Shown: positions 3,858 to 31,102 of the stretch, one piece after another
Position numbering within the stretch: the stretch's first letter is position 1
How the letters are laid out: the number at the start of each line of letters is the position of its first letter
Virus record (IMG/VR): IMGVR_UViG_2778261088_000010
Span: 1-32,475 of that record
Source: a virus
Taxonomy: Duplodnaviria; Heunggongvirae; Uroviricota; Caudoviricetes
Reading direction: 5' to 3' (one strand)
Length of the DNA stretch: 32,475 bases
Made by a program: the position numbers and the translations under genes
Notes under the pieces: generated by a model
What the model was told of the DNA's origin: nothing
The model's input: only the letters and a program-made list of their open reading frames with translations
Databases searched by the model: none

Positions 3858-4161
3858 CATAACGCACACCTCCGGAAATACCTTCCCCAAGATGCATCAG
3901 TTCTTCGTCCGTTCGCTCCGGTATCCCGTTCTCTTCCGGTAAAAGGCTGAAATCAGCCACCGCAGCATCACTGCTGCCGGACACCATTCTCACGATCAAT
4001 GCCTTCAGCGAGGCAAACTGCGCATCCATCCACACATCACTGAAGCTCTGCATCCGGAAATAATCGCCCCACTCACCAAGCTCAGTGGCCGACATTTCCG
4101 ACAGCATCCGCCGCCAGTCTGCCCGCCTGAACTCCCGGGCAAGCCGCATGACAAACTGCAT
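3832..4161 (-). CDS. T: T-frame extension of the tail assembly chaperone (G-T product made by -1 frameshift)
   Basis: This ORF sits in the -1 frame relative to G and overlaps the end of G. The T frame is open from 4194, upstream of the G stop at 4172..4170. The position between G and H matches the lambda G/GT arrangement. Confidence 0.6.
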   Translation of the reverse strand: MQFVMRLAREFRRADWRRMLSEMSATELGEWGDYFRMQSFSDVWMDAQFASLKALIVRMVSGSSDAAVADFSLLPEENGIPERTDEELMHLGEGISGGVRYGPDSQPGH

Positions 4162-4616: not shown

Positions 4617-5360
4617 TTAACCTGCGGCGCTGACAGCCACCGTAGCCACTGCCACAAAATCGCCGTCAGAAGTCATGCCCACAATGCTGACACTGCCCTG
4701 CTTCACGCCTTTCACCGTGGCCACAAGCCCGTTCAGGGTCACCGTGGCAGTCTGTGGATCTGTCGAATGCACACTGATCGCTTTGTCACTGGCTCCGTCA
4801 GGTTTTACTGTAAAGGTCAGCGTGGTGGTTGCTCCCACTTTTACACTGGCAGATGCCGGTGCCACCGTCAGCCCGGTAACGCCCACGATTTCAGTGCCTT
4901 CCTCTGCCAGATACGGACGCCCCACACCGCTGATTTTCACTGTGCGGGTCATCACGTCTTTTGAGGCAATGGTTTTACCCAGTGAACTCAGCCAGCCACG
5001 GAAAACATCAACAGTACCGTTGGGATATTTGATACGAAAAGCGCAGACTTCACCGGAGTCGAACAACTGAACCAGTTTTTTCTGCCCGCTGTCCCCCGGA
5101 CGCCAGGCCAGCGTCGCCGAAGTATCACCGACTGATTTCTGCCCCTGGGTTGTCGTTTTCCAGTCTGCATCTTCATCATCGAGATAAGTGTCATCTTCTG
5201 CATCAGCGGTCATTTCGCCAGGTTGCAGATCCTTCACCATCGCAAGACGCAGCCAGTCAGTGTCCGATAAAGGGTTCGCAAACGCATCGCCCTTGCCGGT
5301 ATACATCCAGAACGTCGTTCCCGCACCTTTCGTTTTTGCCAGTGGATTTGGTGTGGTCAT
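4617..5360 (-). CDS. V: Major tail protein V
   Basis: The product (MTTPNPLAKTKGAGTTFWMYTGKGDAFANPLSD...YLDDEDADW...NGTVDVFRGW) is strongly similar to lambda gpV. A strong RBS (AAGGAGGTG) precedes the ATG at 5360. Confidence 0.9.
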   Translation of the reverse strand: MTTPNPLAKTKGAGTTFWMYTGKGDAFANPLSDTDWLRLAMVKDLQPGEMTADAEDDTYLDDEDADWKTTTQGQKSVGDTSATLAWRPGDSGQKKLVQLFDSGEVCAFRIKYPNGTVDVFRGWLSSLGKTIASKDVMTRTVKISGVGRPYLAEEGTEIVGVTGLTVAPASASVKVGATTTLTFTVKPDGASDKAISVHSTDPQTATVTLNGLVATVKGVKQGSVSIVGMTSDGDFVAVATVAVSAAG

Positions 5361-24360: not shown

Positions 24361-25189
24361 GACGATGCCCTCCGCTGATATTCAGGAGACGGTGAATATG
24401 AAGATTAGCCTTATCCGCCAAACGAATACGTTCAGCCTGCAAGTTAAGAAGGGTTTCTACCAGAAGTTGATGCGCCTGCGGATCTGAAAGAGTTACCTTG
24501 CGCAGAGCACGTAGTGCTGTTGTTACATAACTGAGTTTATGTAAGTCTTCATCATTCAGACGAGTGAGGGCTGGGACAGTAGCCATGATGGCAGCCTCCT
24601 TGATCGGTGAAATACTTCCACCACCGGAAACGCCAATTTCGCTGGTGGTGAACTGAACGGGGTTGGCGTAACCGGTGATCAAGGAAACCGGCGCATCTTT
24701 CGATGCCCCCGCCCAGCCCACCATAACTTTGATGTGAGCAAATGCGGACGATAAAAAAGACGCTGGCGCGTCATATATCGCCTTGATCAATTCCAGGACG
24801 CCAATCCCGGCACCCGCTTTATAAGGTGCCTGAACAGTGTAACGTCCCGGAATGGCAGAATCAATGTGCTGGTGGTCCTTCACACTCAATAAAATCACGC
24901 CTGAATTTCCACAAAGGACTAAAGCACTCATGCGGGTAGTCTTTGCGAAGATAGATAACGCGCTGCGTTTCTGGCTCCCAACGAATAACATGGACATAAA
25001 GCCCTCTTCCGTCACGAAACCAGCGGTTAAGTTCCTGCACAACGCGCCCCCCACAGTCAGGTAAAGTTCTCTGTGGTTACTTACAGCCAGGTGATTTGGT
25101 AATCTGCATTCATGCCGTAACAACAGGTGTTCAGCGACGCTGACCACCTGCTGTTGCGACAAACGGTTATTTGCCGTTAAACTGTTCAT
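24353..25189 (-). CDS. Hypothetical early-region protein
   Basis: A 278-aa ORF translationally coupled to its neighbours. No motif was recognised. Confidence 0.5.
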   Translation of the reverse strand: MNSLTANNRLSQQQVVSVAEHLLLRHECRLPNHLAVSNHRELYLTVGGALCRNLTAGFVTEEGFMSMLFVGSQKRSALSIFAKTTRMSALVLCGNSGVILLSVKDHQHIDSAIPGRYTVQAPYKAGAGIGVLELIKAIYDAPASFLSSAFAHIKVMVGWAGASKDAPVSLITGYANPVQFTTSEIGVSGGGSISPIKEAAIMATVPALTRLNDEDLHKLSYVTTALRALRKVTLSDPQAHQLLVETLLNLQAERIRLADKANLHIHRLLNISGGHRHA

Positions 25190-25749
25190 GCGTTAGTTTC
25201 TCCACAGACACAAAACGCCACGACGCCCGGAGCTGCACACTCGCGGGCGTCACTCTTTTCTGGAGCGCAAAAGATTTTGTAGACCAGTGCTGCATGCTCC
25301 TGGAGCTTCGAAATTGACAGATACAACTCATCATTAATTGCTGTCTGCTCGTGTGGCTCCACTACCCCGTCTTCGATTGCCGAACGAATCTGCTTTGAGT
25401 AACTCCCGATCTGTTCGATGACTTCCAGCAGGCGCTGGTTTATATCGGCGTTCTCTACTTCCTCAATTTCAGGAAGCGATACAAACACCCCACCAGCAGA
25501 CTGTGCAACAGCATCCGCAATGTAGTGAGTGCCAGCCGCGCGCTGTAAAATCATTGCCCATCCCAGCGGGAAAATCTGATCGCCATCTGCACGAAGGCGG
25601 TTGAATAAAGCGTTCTCTGTTACATCCAGCCACTCAGCAGCTTCAGCGTACCCCCCCGGCAACGCCGCGATAGTTTTTCTGACAGCTTTCACGTACCACT
25701 CAGGCTGTTTTTCTACTTTCCAGTGATGCTTACCCACGGTTAGCCTCAT
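25186..25749 (-). CDS. Hypothetical early protein in the cII position
   Basis: A 187-aa ORF immediately downstream of cro. The function is not assignable from sequence. Confidence 0.45.
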   Translation of the reverse strand: MRLTVGKHHWKVEKQPEWYVKAVRKTIAALPGGYAEAAEWLDVTENALFNRLRADGDQIFPLGWAMILQRAAGTHYIADAVAQSAGGVFVSLPEIEEVENADINQRLLEVIEQIGSYSKQIRSAIEDGVVEPHEQTAINDELYLSISKLQEHAALVYKIFCAPEKSDARECAAPGVVAFCVCGETNA

Positions 25750-25780
25750 CGTTCTGTGGTTAAAAATTGAAGGTGTTCTG

Positions 25781-25981
25781 TTAATCTTTCGGATAGATAT
25801 CCGGTCTTAAGTCAGATTTCGTAATTGCACCTGACGTGCATTGCTCAAGTTTTTTAGCCAGCACAAAACTGGCTTTTTTATAACCATTGAAAACCAGCCG
25901 TAAGTAGCCTGGTGTTGAGCCAACTTTTCCGGCCAACTCGCCCTGCTGTTCTTTGGTTAAAGAGTCCCAATACGCTTTCAT
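25781..25981 (-). CDS. cro: Cro-like HTH repressor
   Basis: The 66-aa product from the internal Met (MKAYWDSLTKEQQGELAGKVGSTPGYLRLVFNGYKK...) has a strong RBS (GGAGGT) 8 nt upstream. It is divergent from the cI-like gene. Confidence 0.7.
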   Translation of the reverse strand: MKAYWDSLTKEQQGELAGKVGSTPGYLRLVFNGYKKASFVLAKKLEQCTSGAITKSDLRPDIYPKD

Positions 25982-26071
25982 ACAATATGTACCTCCGATA
26001 TACATATTACATGATTGAGATGAACCTTCAAGATACTTGTACCCTATCGGTACAAAGGTTTTAATTTCGTT
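25982..26071. promoter_or_regulatory. Divergent promoter/operator region between cro and cI (OR-like)
   Basis: Contains the perfect inverted repeat TTGTACC-ctatc-GGTACAA and a further TGTACC half-site. Confidence 0.45.
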
Positions 26072-26746
26072 ATGAAAACAGTCCATGACATCCGGCGGTC
26101 TAACGCCAGAAAACTGAGAGATGGTGTTGGCGGGAATTCTTCCTTTGCCACCATGATTGATCGCGAGCCAACCCAGACCAGCAGGTTTATGGGAGATGGT
26201 GCTACTAAAAATATCGGTGACAGCATGGCACGGCACATCGAAAAATGTTTCGACCTGCCTGTCGGATGGCTTGATCAAGAACACCAGACAACAAACATCA
26301 CAAAAAAACCTGATGTTTCAATTACTAACAAACAAATAACGTTAGTCCCTGTCATATCATGGGTACAGGCCGGAGCATGGAAAGAAGTTGGCTATTCTGA
26401 GGTTGATTTGAGCACAGCAGAAACTTATCCCTGCCCTGTACCCTGTGGCGAAATGACTTATATCTTGCGGGTGATTGGTGATTCAATGATTGATGAGTAC
26501 CGCCCGGGAGACATGATTTTTGTAGATCCTGAAGTCCCTGCCTGCCACGGTGACGACGTTATTGCATTGATGCACAATTCAGGCGAAACCACCTTCAAGC
26601 GGTTGATAGAAGATGGAACACAGCGTTATCTCAAAGCATTAAACCCAAACTGGCCTGAGCCTTACATTAAGATTAACGGTAATTGCTCTATAATTGGTAC
26701 AGTGATTTTCTCGGGAAAACCAAGAAGATACACAATAAAGGCCTAA
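26072..26746 (+). CDS. cI: cI-like repressor (N-terminal HTH plus C-terminal LexA/S24 autopeptidase)
   Basis: The C-terminal domain carries the S24 motifs (GDSM with Ser, and a Lys in TFKRL). The N-terminus is HTH-like. It is divergent from cro. Confidence 0.85.
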   Translation: MKTVHDIRRSNARKLRDGVGGNSSFATMIDREPTQTSRFMGDGATKNIGDSMARHIEKCFDLPVGWLDQEHQTTNITKKPDVSITNKQITLVPVISWVQAGAWKEVGYSEVDLSTAETYPCPVPCGEMTYILRVIGDSMIDEYRPGDMIFVDPEVPACHGDDVIALMHNSGETTFKRLIEDGTQRYLKALNPNWPEPYIKINGNCSIIGTVIFSGKPRRYTIKA

Positions 26747-26758
26747 TCAATATTTATG

Positions 26759-26781
26759 AACCTGCTTCGGCAGGTTTTTTT
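26759..26781 (+). terminator. Rho-independent terminator after cI
   Basis: The hairpin CCTGCTTCGGCAGG is followed by TTTTTTT. Confidence 0.6.
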
Positions 26782-27224
26782 ATACTTGACAATGTACCTA
26801 TGAGATACATAATGTATCTAAAAGAAACATGGCACAGGCAAGATTAAAACAAAATTTGGTTGTAACACGGCGTATGGCACATGCGTCGTTAGCGGTCTGG
26901 TGACGTTAAAGGGGACAATCCACTCCTTGCTCGGGCAAACAAACCAGGTAGCCGGAATGTGCAAGTCAATGATGATGCTGATAAGACGCCTAACCAGCGT
27001 GGCGATTCGGTTTGACACCTGGGAAGAGACCAGGGTGCAACGATGAGAGCATTTATGGAGCCGCGACAAAGTGTGGTGCCGTAACAGGCTAAGTGCTCTC
27101 AGCGTTGTGGTAATCCGCGAAATGGCGCGGCGGTAAGTATGGCGGGGTTACTCTTTCCCCGTTGAGGACACCGGATTGTCAGGTTGACCATACGCCTGAG
27201 TGACAACCCCACCACAACAGCCAC

Positions 27225-27275
27225 TGCTTTGGCGGTACCAGTTTGTACACTTGCTTCCGGCTGGTACCGCTCTTT
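27225..27275. promoter_or_regulatory. Candidate OL/pL-like operator region
   Basis: A 10-bp inverted repeat (GCGGTACCAG...CTGGTACCGC) flanks TTTGTACAC, re-using the GTAC-containing half-site seen at OR. It is followed by TCTTTTTACAAAAC and lies upstream of the first leftward early gene. Confidence 0.35.
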
Positions 27276-27414
27276 TTACAAAACAGAGAAGAACATCATC
27301 GGACGACGGGCTCATAACCCAATCCATCCGGGCGGCTGCCACCGCAGGTGTTCTTCTCTGTTTTGTGGAGAAACTAACCGACCTTGCAGGGTCGATATGA
27401 TGAGGAGCAGCAAA

Positions 27415-27777
27415 ATGGCTAGTGAACGCAGTACTGATGTGCAGGCATTTATCGGGGAGCTGGACGGCGGCGTATTTGAAACCAAAATCGGCGCAGTTCT
27501 AAGTGAAGTCGCTTCCGGTGTGATGAACACGAAAACCAAAGGGAAGGTCTCACTCAATCTGGAAATCGAACCGTTTGATGAGAACCGTGTGAAAATCAAA
27601 CACAAACTCTCATATGTTCGCCCGACTAACCGCGGGAAAATTTCCGAAGAAGACACCACCGAAACGCCGATGTATGTCAATCGCGGTGGTCGCCTGACTA
27701 TTCTGCAGGAAGACCAGGGACAATTACTGACTCTTGCCGGTGAACCTGACGGAAAACTCCGCGCAGCTGGTCGTTAA
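27415..27777 (+). CDS. Hypothetical early protein (YfdP-like, 120 aa)
   Basis: A strong RBS (GAGGAG) lies 6 nt before the ATG at 27415. The track's longer N-terminal extension has no RBS and is rejected. Size and neighbourhood match the yfdP-yfdQ-yfdR arrangement of cryptic prophage CPS-53 as I recall it. Confidence 0.55.
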   Translation: MASERSTDVQAFIGELDGGVFETKIGAVLSEVASGVMNTKTKGKVSLNLEIEPFDENRVKIKHKLSYVRPTNRGKISEEDTTETPMYVNRGGRLTILQEDQGQLLTLAGEPDGKLRAAGR

Positions 27778-27842
27778 TATCGTTTTTAATAAACTGATTA
27801 TTTATCTCATCACTGAATATCTTTATATAGTGAGGACTTATT

Positions 27843-28667
27843 ATGTCTCAGAACTTAGACGCAACCGCAATTAATCAAATCCATGCCCTTATTTCTGCTC
27901 AGGGTGTTAATGAAATTATCAGTAAGATTGGTGCCGATGCTGTGGCATTGCCTGAGAACTTCCGCATTCATGATCTGGAAAAATTTAATTTAAATCGCTT
28001 CCGTTTCCGTGGTGCGCTTTCCACTGCCAGCATCGATGACTTTACCCGTTATTCTAAAGATCTTGCAAATGAAGGCACCCGCTGCTTTATCGATGCCGAT
28101 AATATGCGTGCCGTCAGTGTGCTTAACCTGGGTACTATTGATGAACCAGGTCACGCAGATAACACCGCCACTCTCAAACTGAAAAAGACAGCACCGTTCT
28201 CTGCTCTGTTGTCTGTTAACGGCGAGCGTAACTCCCAGAAGTCACTGGCAGAATGGATTGAAGACTGGGCCGACTACCTTGTAGGCTTTGATGCTAATGG
28301 TGACGCTATTCAGGCAACAAAAGCGGCTGCGGCTGTCCGTAAAATCACGATTGAAGCAAACCAGACCGCTGATTTTGAAGATAATGACTTCAGCGGAAAA
28401 CGCTCCCTGATGGAGTCTGTCGAAGCGAAGACCAAAGATATTATGCCAGTGGCATTTGAATTTAAATGCGTTCCGTTTGAAGGTCTGAAAGAACGTCCGT
28501 TTAAATTACGCCTCAGCATTATCACTGGCGATCGTCCTGTACTGGTTCTGCGCATTATTCAGTTGGAAGCAGTCCAGGAAGAAATGGCTAACGAATTTCG
28601 TGATCTGCTTGTTGAGAAATTCAAAGACAGCAAAGTAGAAACCTTTATTGGTACTTTCACCGCCTGA
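27843..28667 (+). CDS. Hypothetical protein (YfdQ-like, 274 aa)
   Basis: A 274-aa ORF; length and neighbourhood fit YfdQ of CPS-53 (from memory). Confidence 0.6.
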
Positions 28668-29806: not shown

Positions 29807-31102
29807 ATGAAGCAAAATAGTACAATTTCGTCTGTTTTTAAGATATCACGAGATCTTCCCGAAAACTATGTCATTAGAAAAGATATAGATGATAAATTCA
29901 TTGAGGCACTGACTCAAGAAACACATGTCGTAATTTATGGCAGCTCAAAACAAGGTAAAACATCCTTAAGAAAAAAGAATCTTCTTCCAGAAGATTATAT
30001 CGATATTACATGTTCAAACACTTGGAAACTGGAAGATATTCACGTTGCAATTTTAAAAAAAATTGGCTATCAAGTTTCAACTTCACAATCCAAAACCTTA
30101 AAAGGCTCAGCTAAGGTAAAAATAGGAATAAATATTCCTTTCATTCATAAAACATCACTTGATTTAACTGGGGATGCTGCAAAAACGATTAATAAAAAAA
30201 ATATTGAATTAGATCCTGGGGATGTCAATGACATAATTACTTCTTTAGAAGAGGTCAATTTCAATAAAATTATTGTTATCGAAGACTTTCACTATCTTCC
30301 AGAACAAACGCAAATTGATTTCTCTGTGGCATTAAAAGCCTTTCATGAATCATCTAAACTTTGTTTTATTATTGTTGGAGTATGGCTGGAAGAGGATAAA
30401 CTAACAACATTTAATGGTGACTTAGCAGGAAGAGTTGTTTCCATTAATGCTGACCGCTGGGAGAAAGAAGACGTATATAAACTATTTGAGAATAGCGAGA
30501 AGTTACTTAACATTAAATTTGATGAAAAATTTAAATCAGATATTATTGAAAAATGTAATGGAAGTATTTTTTTAGTTCAACAGTTATGTTTTAAAGCATG
30601 TGAATTAGAACAGATAAATAATAGCCAAGGTGAACTTAAGATTGTAGGTAAAAATTTTTTAGTTGAAGATGAAATAAAAAAACTAATCAATGAACAATAC
30701 TCAAGATATTTCAAATTTTTAACCGATTTTAGCTGTGGATTTGATCAGACCTCACTTGAATTATACAAATGGATTTTGTATGTTCTGATTACTGTTGAAC
30801 AACGTTATCTTGAAATAGGTGTGCCTGAGGCTGCTATTAGGCGGTTAATTCAAGAAAAACACCCTAAAAAAACAGAAGTTTCACAAAAAAAATTAAGACA
30901 GGCGCTACGAAAGTCTGTTGATCTCCAAGTAAAAATATCTATTAAACCTATTGTTTTTGAGTTTGACTCCAGTTCATCCAGAATTAAGATAGTTGATAGA
31001 CCATTTATATTATGGCGATCGTATCAAAATCAAGATGATCTATACGGATACGCAGATCTATCAGATGATTTAAAAACCAATATTATTACTACTGGATATT
31101 AA
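29807..31102 (+). CDS. P-loop NTPase (AAA-like ATPase) of unknown function in an AT-rich island
   Basis: Walker A (VVIYGSSKQGKTSL) and Walker B (KIIVIEDFHYL) motifs are present. The gene is very AT-rich, with AT-rich flanks, and is inserted between xis and int. Confidence 0.7.
   Translation: MKQNSTISSVFKISRDLPENYVIRKDIDDKFIEALTQETHVVIYGSSKQGKTSLRKKNLLPEDYIDITCSNTWKLEDIHVAILKKIGYQVSTSQSKTLKGSAKVKIGINIPFIHKTSLDLTGDAAKTINKKNIELDPGDVNDIITSLEEVNFNKIIVIEDFHYLPEQTQIDFSVALKAFHESSKLCFIIVGVWLEEDKLTTFNGDLAGRVVSINADRWEKEDVYKLFENSEKLLNIKFDEKFKSDIIEKCNGSIFLVQQLCFKACELEQINNSQGELKIVGKNFLVEDEIKKLINEQYSRYFKFLTDFSCGFDQTSLELYKWILYVLITVEQRYLEIGVPEAAIRRLIQEKHPKKTEVSQKKLRQALRKSVDLQVKISIKPIVFEFDSSSSRIKIVDRPFILWRSYQNQDDLYGYADLSDDLKTNIITTGY

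Follow-up and report, generated by a model that had tools for sequence, protein, structure and literature searches.

Conserved structured RNA elements between the repressor gene and the first early-left gene of an SfV/cdtI/Stx2c-type lambdoid prophage

The window analyzed here is a 32,475-nt stretch of Caudoviricetes DNA (IMG/VR record IMGVR_UViG_2778261088_000010, positions 1 to 32,475) that belongs to a lambdoid prophage of the SfV/cdtI/Stx2c type. Within it we studied the interval 26782-27414, which separates the terminator behind the cI-like repressor gene from the first early-left gene, and which an earlier note, made from the sequence alone, had described as about 630 bp without a credible open reading frame (ORF). 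The interval has no supported coding sequence and is made of conserved plus-strand RNA elements, the first of which, module A, is a structured RNA that matches no described family. Taken as a whole, the interval reads as the untranslated leader of the repressor-controlled pL operon, encoding a chain of structured RNAs, and we assign this interpretation a probability of roughly 0.55.

The interval and its boundaries

In BLAST against phage genomes, the interval matched Stx2c-converting phages, phage cdtI, 2H10, and Ayreon at 98% identity. Copies of this DNA were present in at least 120 viral contigs and in about one third of the complete E. coli genomes. The features at the locus, from left to right, are as follows.

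26072-26746: cI-like S24 repressor ORF, marking the left side of the interval
26758-26777, plus strand: the cI-like repressor gene's intrinsic terminator, with an 8-bp stem and then TTTTTAT (terminator scan), the left boundary
26786-26813, plus strand: pL, early-left promoter (TTGACA-16-CATAAT, 11/12 matches), 9 bases past the cI terminator
26792-26830, unstranded: OL, two operator palindromes (ATGTAC-N7-ATACAT) overlapping pL
26866-27037, plus strand: module A, structured RNA of about 170 nt (covariance model R1, covariation)
27041-27104, plus strand: stem A3, long-range helix pairing 27041-27055 with 27090-27104 around a small hairpin (fold, comparison)
27104-27218, plus strand: module B, cloverleaf-shaped domain of three arms, closed by the helix GUUGUGGU/ACCACAAC (homology, fold)
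27219-27277, plus strand: candidate DicF-like small RNA (sRNA) with intrinsic terminator (hairpin 27231-27270, U-tract 27271-27277)
27278-27366, plus strand: long hairpin adjoining the terminator, its basal stem a perfect 20 bp (-44.2 kcal/mol, z -6.25)
27402-27407, plus strand: Shine-Dalgarno sequence GAGGAG preceding the first early-left gene
27415 (ATG) to stop at 27777, plus strand: first early-left gene, YfdP-like (phrog_204, E 1e-49, unknown function), the right boundary

The promoter was the top sigma-70 match within 25700-28000. Of the two operator palindromes, one is a perfect 19-mer (26792-26810) and the other a copy with one mismatch (26812-26830), and the sole other perfect copy in the window lies at 25987-26005 in the cro/cI operator region. 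Since the promoter match is overlapped by palindromes shared with the cro-cI region, we identified this site as pL with its operators, elements that the earlier note had expected somewhere in the interval, and we infer a transcription start near 26820. No further promoter-like site was found by the promoter scan on the plus strand between pL and the first gene, a stretch of roughly 600 nt with 51% guanine plus cytosine (GC). The GC fraction of the interval, 0.507 compared with 0.488 for the whole window, agrees with the statement that it is not AT-rich. The boundaries were likewise as described, except that the first early-left gene begins at the ATG at 27415 and not at 27417. That gene, for which a Pfam search gave no match, is followed by DUF2303/YfdQ-like and HD-phosphatase genes, with an excisionase-like gene further along.

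Mechanical ORF calling returned reading frames of up to 83 aa on both strands of the interval. The explanation that one or more of these (for example the 48-, 66-, 83-, or 64-aa ORFs) encodes a small protein draws upon the hypothetical proteins annotated at this position in related phage records, and upon the matches of two ORFs to PHROG families of unknown function (phrog_3651, E 6e-36; phrog_33599, E 1e-13). PHROG families, however, are made from predicted ORFs, so that such matches follow conserved DNA, and the Pfam search of the interval ORFs was without any match. In addition, the hypothetical-protein ORFs annotated here differ in strand and frame from record to record, and the stop-free frame is not the same among homologues; indels of 3, 4, 7, and 19 nt occur among the homologues, those of 3, 4, and 7 nt breaking every reading frame, and no frame is conserved. 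The lengths of the variable inserts show no 3-nt periodicity (mod-3 counts of 7/13/10 and 9/7/14), and base-pair covariation accounts for the substitutions instead. The small ORFs were rejected as genes on the Pfam, PHROG, and insert-length evidence, and we give a small protein almost no credence; in this respect the earlier note was right. It was right also that no N-like gene is evident nearby, since the stretch from pL to the terminator holds no N-like ORF, nor do the genes that come first after it resemble N (ORF list, PHROG, Pfam).

Structured RNA elements of the leader

Module A begins about 48 nt downstream of pL (54 nt counted from the -10 element) and folds into six helices and a pseudoknot. 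Its elements are hairpin P1, helices P2 and P3 with a variable insert, a conserved junction (CCGGAAUGUGCAAG), helix P7 enclosing the variable P4 and P5, the pseudoknot, and hairpin P6, whose loop is GAAGAGA. Homologues were collected with an exact core 19-mer (GGTAGCCGGAATGTGCAAG) as the search key, which returned at least 120 viral contigs and 113 distinct sequences that formed 40 clusters at 93% identity, and the helices were defined on 30 diverse representatives. Across these 30 homologues 95% of cells form standard pairs, a figure that drops to 30-43% if the 3' strands are shifted by 1-3 columns; two-sided changes occur at 14 pairs, and the covariation score was unmatched by any shuffle. 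In the window the pseudoknot pairs AACC (P5 loop, near 26992) with GGUU (near 27010); most members have CACC/GGUG, and two distant members, neither of which was retrieved through the 19-mer, show the complete exchange to GGUC/GACC. A loop-junction pairing, GCACAU/AUGUGC, is a further candidate.

Covariance model R1 detects a single copy of module A in the window (137.9 bits, E 8e-38). Rfam 15 was searched with the whole window, with 26700-27500 at relaxed E, and with 17 related loci. At the gathering score nothing matched in the interval, the only matches in the window being C4 and isrK elsewhere; at E up to 10, 26700-27500 gave merely weak matches to STnc50, mir-3617, and rsmX, which reflect no more than the cI terminator and the long hairpin, and no plus-strand match overlapped 26866-27037. 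The arrays equivalent to the interval at 13 related loci contained no Rfam family, and the core sequence of module A was not found in the literature searched. The earlier note had proposed searching the interval with Rfam and put covariance models and looking for conserved structure in related prophages; the former searches gave no match in the interval, and the latter found the helices kept by compensatory changes. These results show that module A is a real structured RNA matching no described family.

One stretch within module A recalls another RNA, in that a 12-mer in helix P3 (TCTGGTGACGTT, 26896-26907) is identical to the DicF 5' seed (UUCUGGUGACGUU), and in P7 the sequence ATTTTCTGGTGATGAC follows module A right before ban (L004 2703-2715). 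This sharing may reflect mosaic exchange between RNAs, or chance.

Of 5426 complete E. coli genomes, 1822 contained module A. Plasmids accounted for 546 of its places, and it was without annotation in all of the E. coli genome records listed; some phage records overwrite it with hypothetical-protein calls. Among species-representative genomes it was confined to Enterobacterales, save for two metagenome bins labelled Bacillota that we took to be mis-binned. It lies in sense orientation in all contexts, and in many of them it starts 7-55 nt past a strong early promoter with operator repeats. In ST101-KPC2phi6.3 and 733R5, module A directly follows cI and is itself directly followed by the first gene. 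In two contigs (L037 and L045) the pL region is homologous to that of HK022 (87.5% and 85% over 40-47 nt), and module A starts at the position of HK022's putL. Model R1 found one copy at each of 39 related loci, bar one tandem pair; at locus L025 tandem copies lie at 3997-4154 and 4804-4959, about 650 nt apart. Module A has no terminator of its own, the nearest being at least 133 nt downstream, past another module. A same-strand tRNA is directly adjacent at 11 of 125 loci, and other loci interleave tRNA-like T-arm fragments with the leader modules.

Two further records bear on its surroundings. The epsilon15 record (L231 1277-1504) annotates a repressor site, an integration host factor (IHF) site, and an "RNaseIII mRNA processing" site beside a module A fragment that consists of the P1 hairpin only. 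The phiV10-like phages (L005) carry a full module A, then a tRNA-Arg and two terminators.

Stem A3 directly follows module A. Its fold (-29.7 kcal/mol, z -4.5) was equalled by none of 200 shuffles, and an uninterrupted terminal helix of this type, at least 7 bp long, follows module A in 44 of 46 distinct contexts, in sequence variants such as GAGAGCAUU/AGUGCUCUC and GAGCGCACUUC/GGAGUGCGCUC. According to published work on DicF (PMC10448788), RNase III generates the 5' end of a 190-nt species, and RNase E produces a 53-nt form. At the Qin-like locus, counting 190 nt back from the DicF 3' end, which is arithmetic and not a mapped site, leads to the 3' strand of an A3-type stem. By analogy, stem A3 is likely to be an RNase III processing site between modules.

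The same 3' strand (GUGCUCUC..., UGCUCUUU in relatives) is central to a different explanation, in which the leader would engage Nus factors as in rrn or lambda nut antitermination, with the A3 strand serving as boxA and P6 as a boxB-like hairpin. In several relatives the strand reads UGCUCUUUCC/UGCUCUUUUUG, close to the rrn boxA (UGCUCUUUAACAA), and the GUUGUGG that follows it in relatives recalls the boxC consensus; long untranslated transcripts generally need protection from Rho. Against this, the interval has no boxA match at 3 or fewer mismatches, and there is no encoded N-like protein that could use a boxB. The candidate boxA is, furthermore, one strand of a paired helix and covaries with its partner, so that it would not be free to bind NusB/NusE. 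We consider this explanation very improbable.

Module B is about 90% identical to the stretch right upstream of DicF in a Qin-like phage (L006 2501-2623; DicF Rfam match at 2633-2684). There the closing helix reads GUUGUGGC/GCUGCAAC with its pairing kept; the GGCGGGG/CCCCGUU arm likewise stays paired through changes, and in another relative a second arm carries a G-C to C-G swap. The homologue set used here was filtered by BLAST, a 14-mer key having proved too short and having drawn in unrelated sequences. A single-sequence fold of module B gives a four-way junction. A query spanning modules A and B matched in some part in 4574 of the 5426 E. coli genomes, mostly through module B only, and the module-B-only matches include K-12 strains, at a position consistent with Qin.

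Beyond module B, the segment 27231-27241 (GGCGGTACCAG) pairs with 27261-27270 (CTGGTACCGC) in a 13-bp stem followed by TCTTTTT. None of 200 shuffles folded as well (-21.5 kcal/mol, z -3.1), and this hairpin with its UCUUUUU tract is predicted to be a good intrinsic terminator. It belongs to a candidate sRNA that occupies the same place after module B as DicF does in Qin, and whose 5' arm and flank (UUUGGCGGUACCAGUUUG) are identical to DicF (UUUGGCGGUAUCAGUUUU) at 16 of 18 positions (UUUGGCGGUAcCAGUUUg). In 76 of 98 distinct contexts, a hairpin of the family GGCGGU...ACCGCC-CUUUUUAC separates module A from the first ORF, the loop or seed differing in each. The Rfam DicF model (RF00039), which scores 76.7 bits on the Qin-like locus L006, has no match in the window at the gathering score and none in 26700-27500 at E up to 10. 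The earlier suggestion of a prophage sRNA is thus borne out by a candidate of the DicF type. The inverted repeats listed in that note are also present (27231-27270 and CCGCG-aaatgg-CGCGG at 27115-27130), as the sRNA terminator stem and one arm of the module B cloverleaf, respectively, and not as parts of an antiterminator.

Two candidate assignments for the sRNA were rejected. Targeting of ftsZ is unsupported, since in a crude test the predicted duplex with ftsZ -60..+30 (-24.8 kcal/mol) was worse than shuffled controls, 98% of which were as good or better, compared with -38.5 kcal/mol and 8% of shuffles as good for DicF itself. The known enterohemorrhagic E. coli prophage sRNAs AgvB, AsxR, and Pas were ruled out as they are sited in the late (PR') region.

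The long hairpin that follows is conserved in SfIV, ST64B, and others, and in a diverged copy (L090) the stem is kept through A-U to G-C and U.G to U-A changes. An analogous long-range stem of about 24 bp follows DicF in Qin; there RNase III is reported to create the 3' end of the 72-nt DicF (PMC5069750). By this analogy the long hairpin is likely to be a substrate of RNase III, parting the sRNA from the mRNA.

BLAST against phage genomes splits the interval into blocks that occur independently of one another.

Block A, 26854-27110: elsewhere in P1/P7 (between tRNA-Ile and ban), epsilon15-like podoviruses (beside a tRNA), and many lambdoid phages
Block B, 27104-27226: elsewhere directly upstream of DicF in Qin-like prophages
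Block C, 27229-27420: elsewhere in SfIV, ST64B, and others

Other phages (L037, L045, L036, L014, L100, L108, and others) carry arrays of 400-900 nt of further unannotated modules after module A, with no Rfam family among them. These longer arrays include A3-type stems containing UGUCGUUAAAU, cloverleaf variants beginning GUUGUGGUGAAUGCG, pieces resembling tRNA T-arms (e.g., GCGGUUCGAUUCCGC), and sRNAs such as GCUGUGUGUAGUCUUGGCGGUCGGCAG...CCGACCGCCCCUUUU. In SfV (L002 2560-3250), cI, pL, and the operators are the same, and module A and stem A3 are replaced by a block with orf33 and an opposite-strand terminator, beyond which lie a cloverleaf variant and an sRNA of the GCUGUGUGUAGUC type fused to the window's terminator stem. 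The difference looks like a moron insertion together with a deletion. We considered orf33 as an N-like gene standing in for module A and rejected it, its product being neither arginine-rich nor N-like.

Early transcription and the role of module A

In the leader that we propose, loss of the repressor would let RNA polymerase start near 26820, and RNase III would cut both long stems, near 27100 and within 27278-27366, freeing module A and a cloverleaf-sRNA precursor of about 175 nt. RNase E may trim the precursor to a short DicF-type sRNA with a seed unlike that of DicF. Since a terminator stands between pL and all early-left genes, and since there is no other promoter-like site, the YfdP-like, DUF2303, HD-phosphatase, and excisionase-like genes would have to be reached by read-through past the sRNA terminator. 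As this terminator gates the excisionase-like gene, the leader probably sets the tightness of prophage excision control.

How polymerase would pass the terminator is the weakest link of this interpretation. The put RNAs of phage HK022 are cis-acting antiterminators that bind the beta' zinc-binding domain of RNA polymerase and are blocked by rpoC mutations in that domain. Module A contains the put stem-I motif at 26867-26888 (ACGGCGUAUGGCACAUGCGUCG); the motif ACGGCG-N7-CAUGCGUCG matches put stem I including its G.U pair and its CAUG, and the window has one occurrence of the pattern ACGGCG-N5-15-CATGCGTCG, where 0.00 would be expected. In the cryo-electron microscopy (cryo-EM) structure, the CAUG of put stem I contacts RNA polymerase (PMC9378689). 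Module A would, in cis, make the polymerase resist termination as put RNA does, and may dock through this stem-I motif. A role in cis is favored because module A starts the early transcripts of lambdoid and epsilon15-like phages, because it fills the putL position in the two contigs with an HK022-like pL, because it has the base of put stem I together with the polymerase-touching CAUG, and because mEp460, a related functional phage, has a Q-like regulator and no annotated N.

Several observations weigh against cis antitermination by module A. A put covariance model (R2) built from six put sequences recovers HK022 putL, HK022 putR, and HK639 putL (E 4e-20 to 6e-10), and with filters off and E up to 10 it has no match in 26782-27414; since the put model fails on module A, the likeness between the two comes down to one local motif. 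No second copy of module A was found in the pR operon of the window or of the 39 related loci, whereas HK022 has two put sites. SfV, which is inducible and has the same immunity region, is without module A and stem A3 and keeps a cloverleaf variant, the DicF-like terminator, and the long hairpin, so that module A is dispensable there. In P1/P7, module A is an internal element of the ban operon, 2.4 kb from its start; tRNA-Ile immediately precedes it, and the 95 nt that separate it from ban hold no terminator. In some members a gene comes directly next. The invariance of the junction in the first data set was partly an artefact of the 19-mer search key, and the junction is still nearly invariant in members recovered by BLAST or the covariance model. 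Lastly, the processing stem that adjoins module A is just as compatible with an RNA that is released and acts in trans. On account of the put model, the missing pR copy, SfV, P1/P7, and the processing stem, we regard cis-acting antitermination as the likeliest role of module A only tentatively, at clearly worse than even odds. The more specific proposal, that it constitutes a second, structurally distinct class of phage RNA suppressing termination in cis and reuses the put docking stem-I motif within a larger pseudoknotted fold, we hold to be doubtful.

The processing signals that flank module A, with a promoter or tRNA upstream and stem A3 downstream, would also be expected of a stable RNA acting in trans, whether to sequester a host protein or RNA (as a decoy or sponge) or to counteract defence. 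RNase III, or in P1 and phiV10 the tRNA-processing enzymes, would release it from a leader that is in effect an operon of RNA genes with passive read-through. The same-strand tRNAs beside module A and the T-arm fragments interleaved elsewhere fit this explanation, as do the tandem copies in L025 and the ability of SfV to manage without module A, and the strongly conserved unpaired segments would fit the binding of a conserved host factor. Yet in those lambdoid and epsilon15-like contexts that were examined, early transcripts carry module A at their 5' end, P1/P7 being the exception, a placement of which a trans-acting gene has no need; module A is never found with its own terminator, and no complementarity or partner was identified. 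We judge a trans-acting RNA to be rather unlikely.

In lambdoid, epsilon15-like, and P1 contexts, the same processing would yield an RNA that starts with module A, and the U-tract UCUUUUU is of moderate quality. Both points suit an explanation in which the leader merely shapes processing and stability, with module A as a 5' protective fold, the stems and cloverleaf maturing the sRNA and setting the half-life or translation of the first mRNA, and the terminator simply leaky. A protective 5' hairpin, however, needs neither 170 nt nor a pseudoknot nor junctions that are nearly invariant across genera, and stem A3 would cut module A off from the very RNA it was to protect. This explanation appears improbable to us.

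Whatever its role, module A is a common element without a name, present in about a third of complete E. coli genomes, in P1-like plasmids, and in Stx2c- and cdt-converting phages. If it does modify RNA polymerase, it would join put among the very few RNAs that do so without protein factors, and the question of how lambdoid phages that lack N antiterminate would become directly testable. A second class of cis-acting RNA would then explain how early operons can start with sRNA terminators in N-less prophages of the SfV/cdtI/Stx2c type, and possibly in P1 and epsilon15-like phages.

Two observations concern other parts of the window. In the pR operon, on the minus strand, the segment 24641-24829 inside the ORF 24353-25189 matches the Rfam C4 antisense RNA (82 bits) and isrK RNA (64 bits). 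The 278-aa product of this ORF, called "immunity region" in relatives, matches Pfam Phage_ASH at aa 117-210 (nt 24559-24841), exactly over C4/isrK; because of this coincidence the Ash family, or at least the ORF call, may represent translated conserved RNA genes. In addition, a 431-aa ORF at 29807-31102, just past the excisionase-like gene, is probably cargo at the prophage end.

Comparison with known systems

The window shares with the lambda N/nut system the order cI, pL/OL, leader, early-left genes, and the same logical need to pass a terminator. The lambda N leader also carries an RNase III site. The systems differ in that the leader studied here is about 600 nt of structured RNA; its first gene is YfdP-like, no N-like ORF is encoded, and no boxA match at 3 or fewer mismatches lies in the interval. 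It is not an N/nut leader and, so far as the sequence shows, does not depend on boxA.

Phage tRNA and sRNA operons, such as the tRNAs of the P1 ban operon, offer a second comparison. Module A lies directly beside same-strand tRNAs in P1/P7 and in phiV10-like phages, and the four-way junction of module B fills the slot of a real tRNA-Arg in phiV10. In contrast, no module of the window is recognized as a tRNA or transfer-messenger RNA (tmRNA), and T- and D-loop consensus sequences are absent; ARAGORN found 0 tRNA or tmRNA genes in 26000-28000, and Rfam had no tRNA or tmRNA match in the window.

The earlier note had also raised put-like antitermination, and the part of that suggestion that stands is the position, for a structured RNA does lie exactly in the slot of HK022 putL. 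It is not a put element: membership of the put family was rejected by the put covariance model and by BLAST against the HK022 immunity region. Like HK022 put, module A closely follows a repressor-controlled pL, in a lambdoid phage that lacks N, and is itself followed by terminators located ahead of the early genes; it also contains a pseudoknot, that of put being our reading of the pairings in the cryo-EM structure (PMC9378689). HK022 and HK639 put have in common with module A the base of stem I (CGGCG/CGUCG, G.U pair included), the A that precedes this base, and the CAUG. The differences are considerable. HK022 put is about 70 nt with two stem-loops, compared with about 170 nt and six helices for module A, in which put stem II has no equivalent, G35 of put is replaced by C, A, or U, and the CAUG can pair with UAUG rather than bulge. 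HK022 has two put sites, whereas module A is present as one copy per genome, with none after pR, and unlike put it is also found inside the P1 ban operon and in epsilon15-like podoviruses. The put covariance model found no putR-like element in the related loci. In the window it gave a weak, non-significant match at 25115-25184 on the minus strand (7.9 bits, E about 2), where an AACGGC...UGUCG stem is followed by a long hairpin; this site, within the pR operon and flanked by the cII-like gene and isrK, is where a putR would be expected, and the match is probably due to chance.

The closest comparison for the remainder of the leader is the Qin dicF locus, which, like 27041-27366, runs from a long-range stem through a cloverleaf, an sRNA hairpin-terminator, and a long double-stranded stem to an ORF. 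In the window, module B, the terminator, and the long hairpin occur in this order. Both loci lie within an operon controlled by an immunity repressor, and in both the hairpin-terminator starts UUUGGCGGUA-CAGUUU. The two differ in that the single-stranded 5' seed of Qin DicF (UUUCUGGUGACG) is absent from the window's sRNA, which also has another loop and another 3' arm; in that the Qin-like locus has no module A (model R1) and places three protein genes before dicF; and in the gene that follows, which is dicB in Qin and yfdP-like in the window. Judged by this architecture and by the homologous upstream domain, the part of the leader formed by blocks B and C would be a new version of the DicF locus with a different sRNA body. 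Qin dicF itself appears to be one case of a widespread design, consisting of an RNase III stem, a tRNA-like domain, an sRNA with a variable seed, and a second RNase III stem, and such a modular design would offer a route to many prophage sRNAs with new targets.

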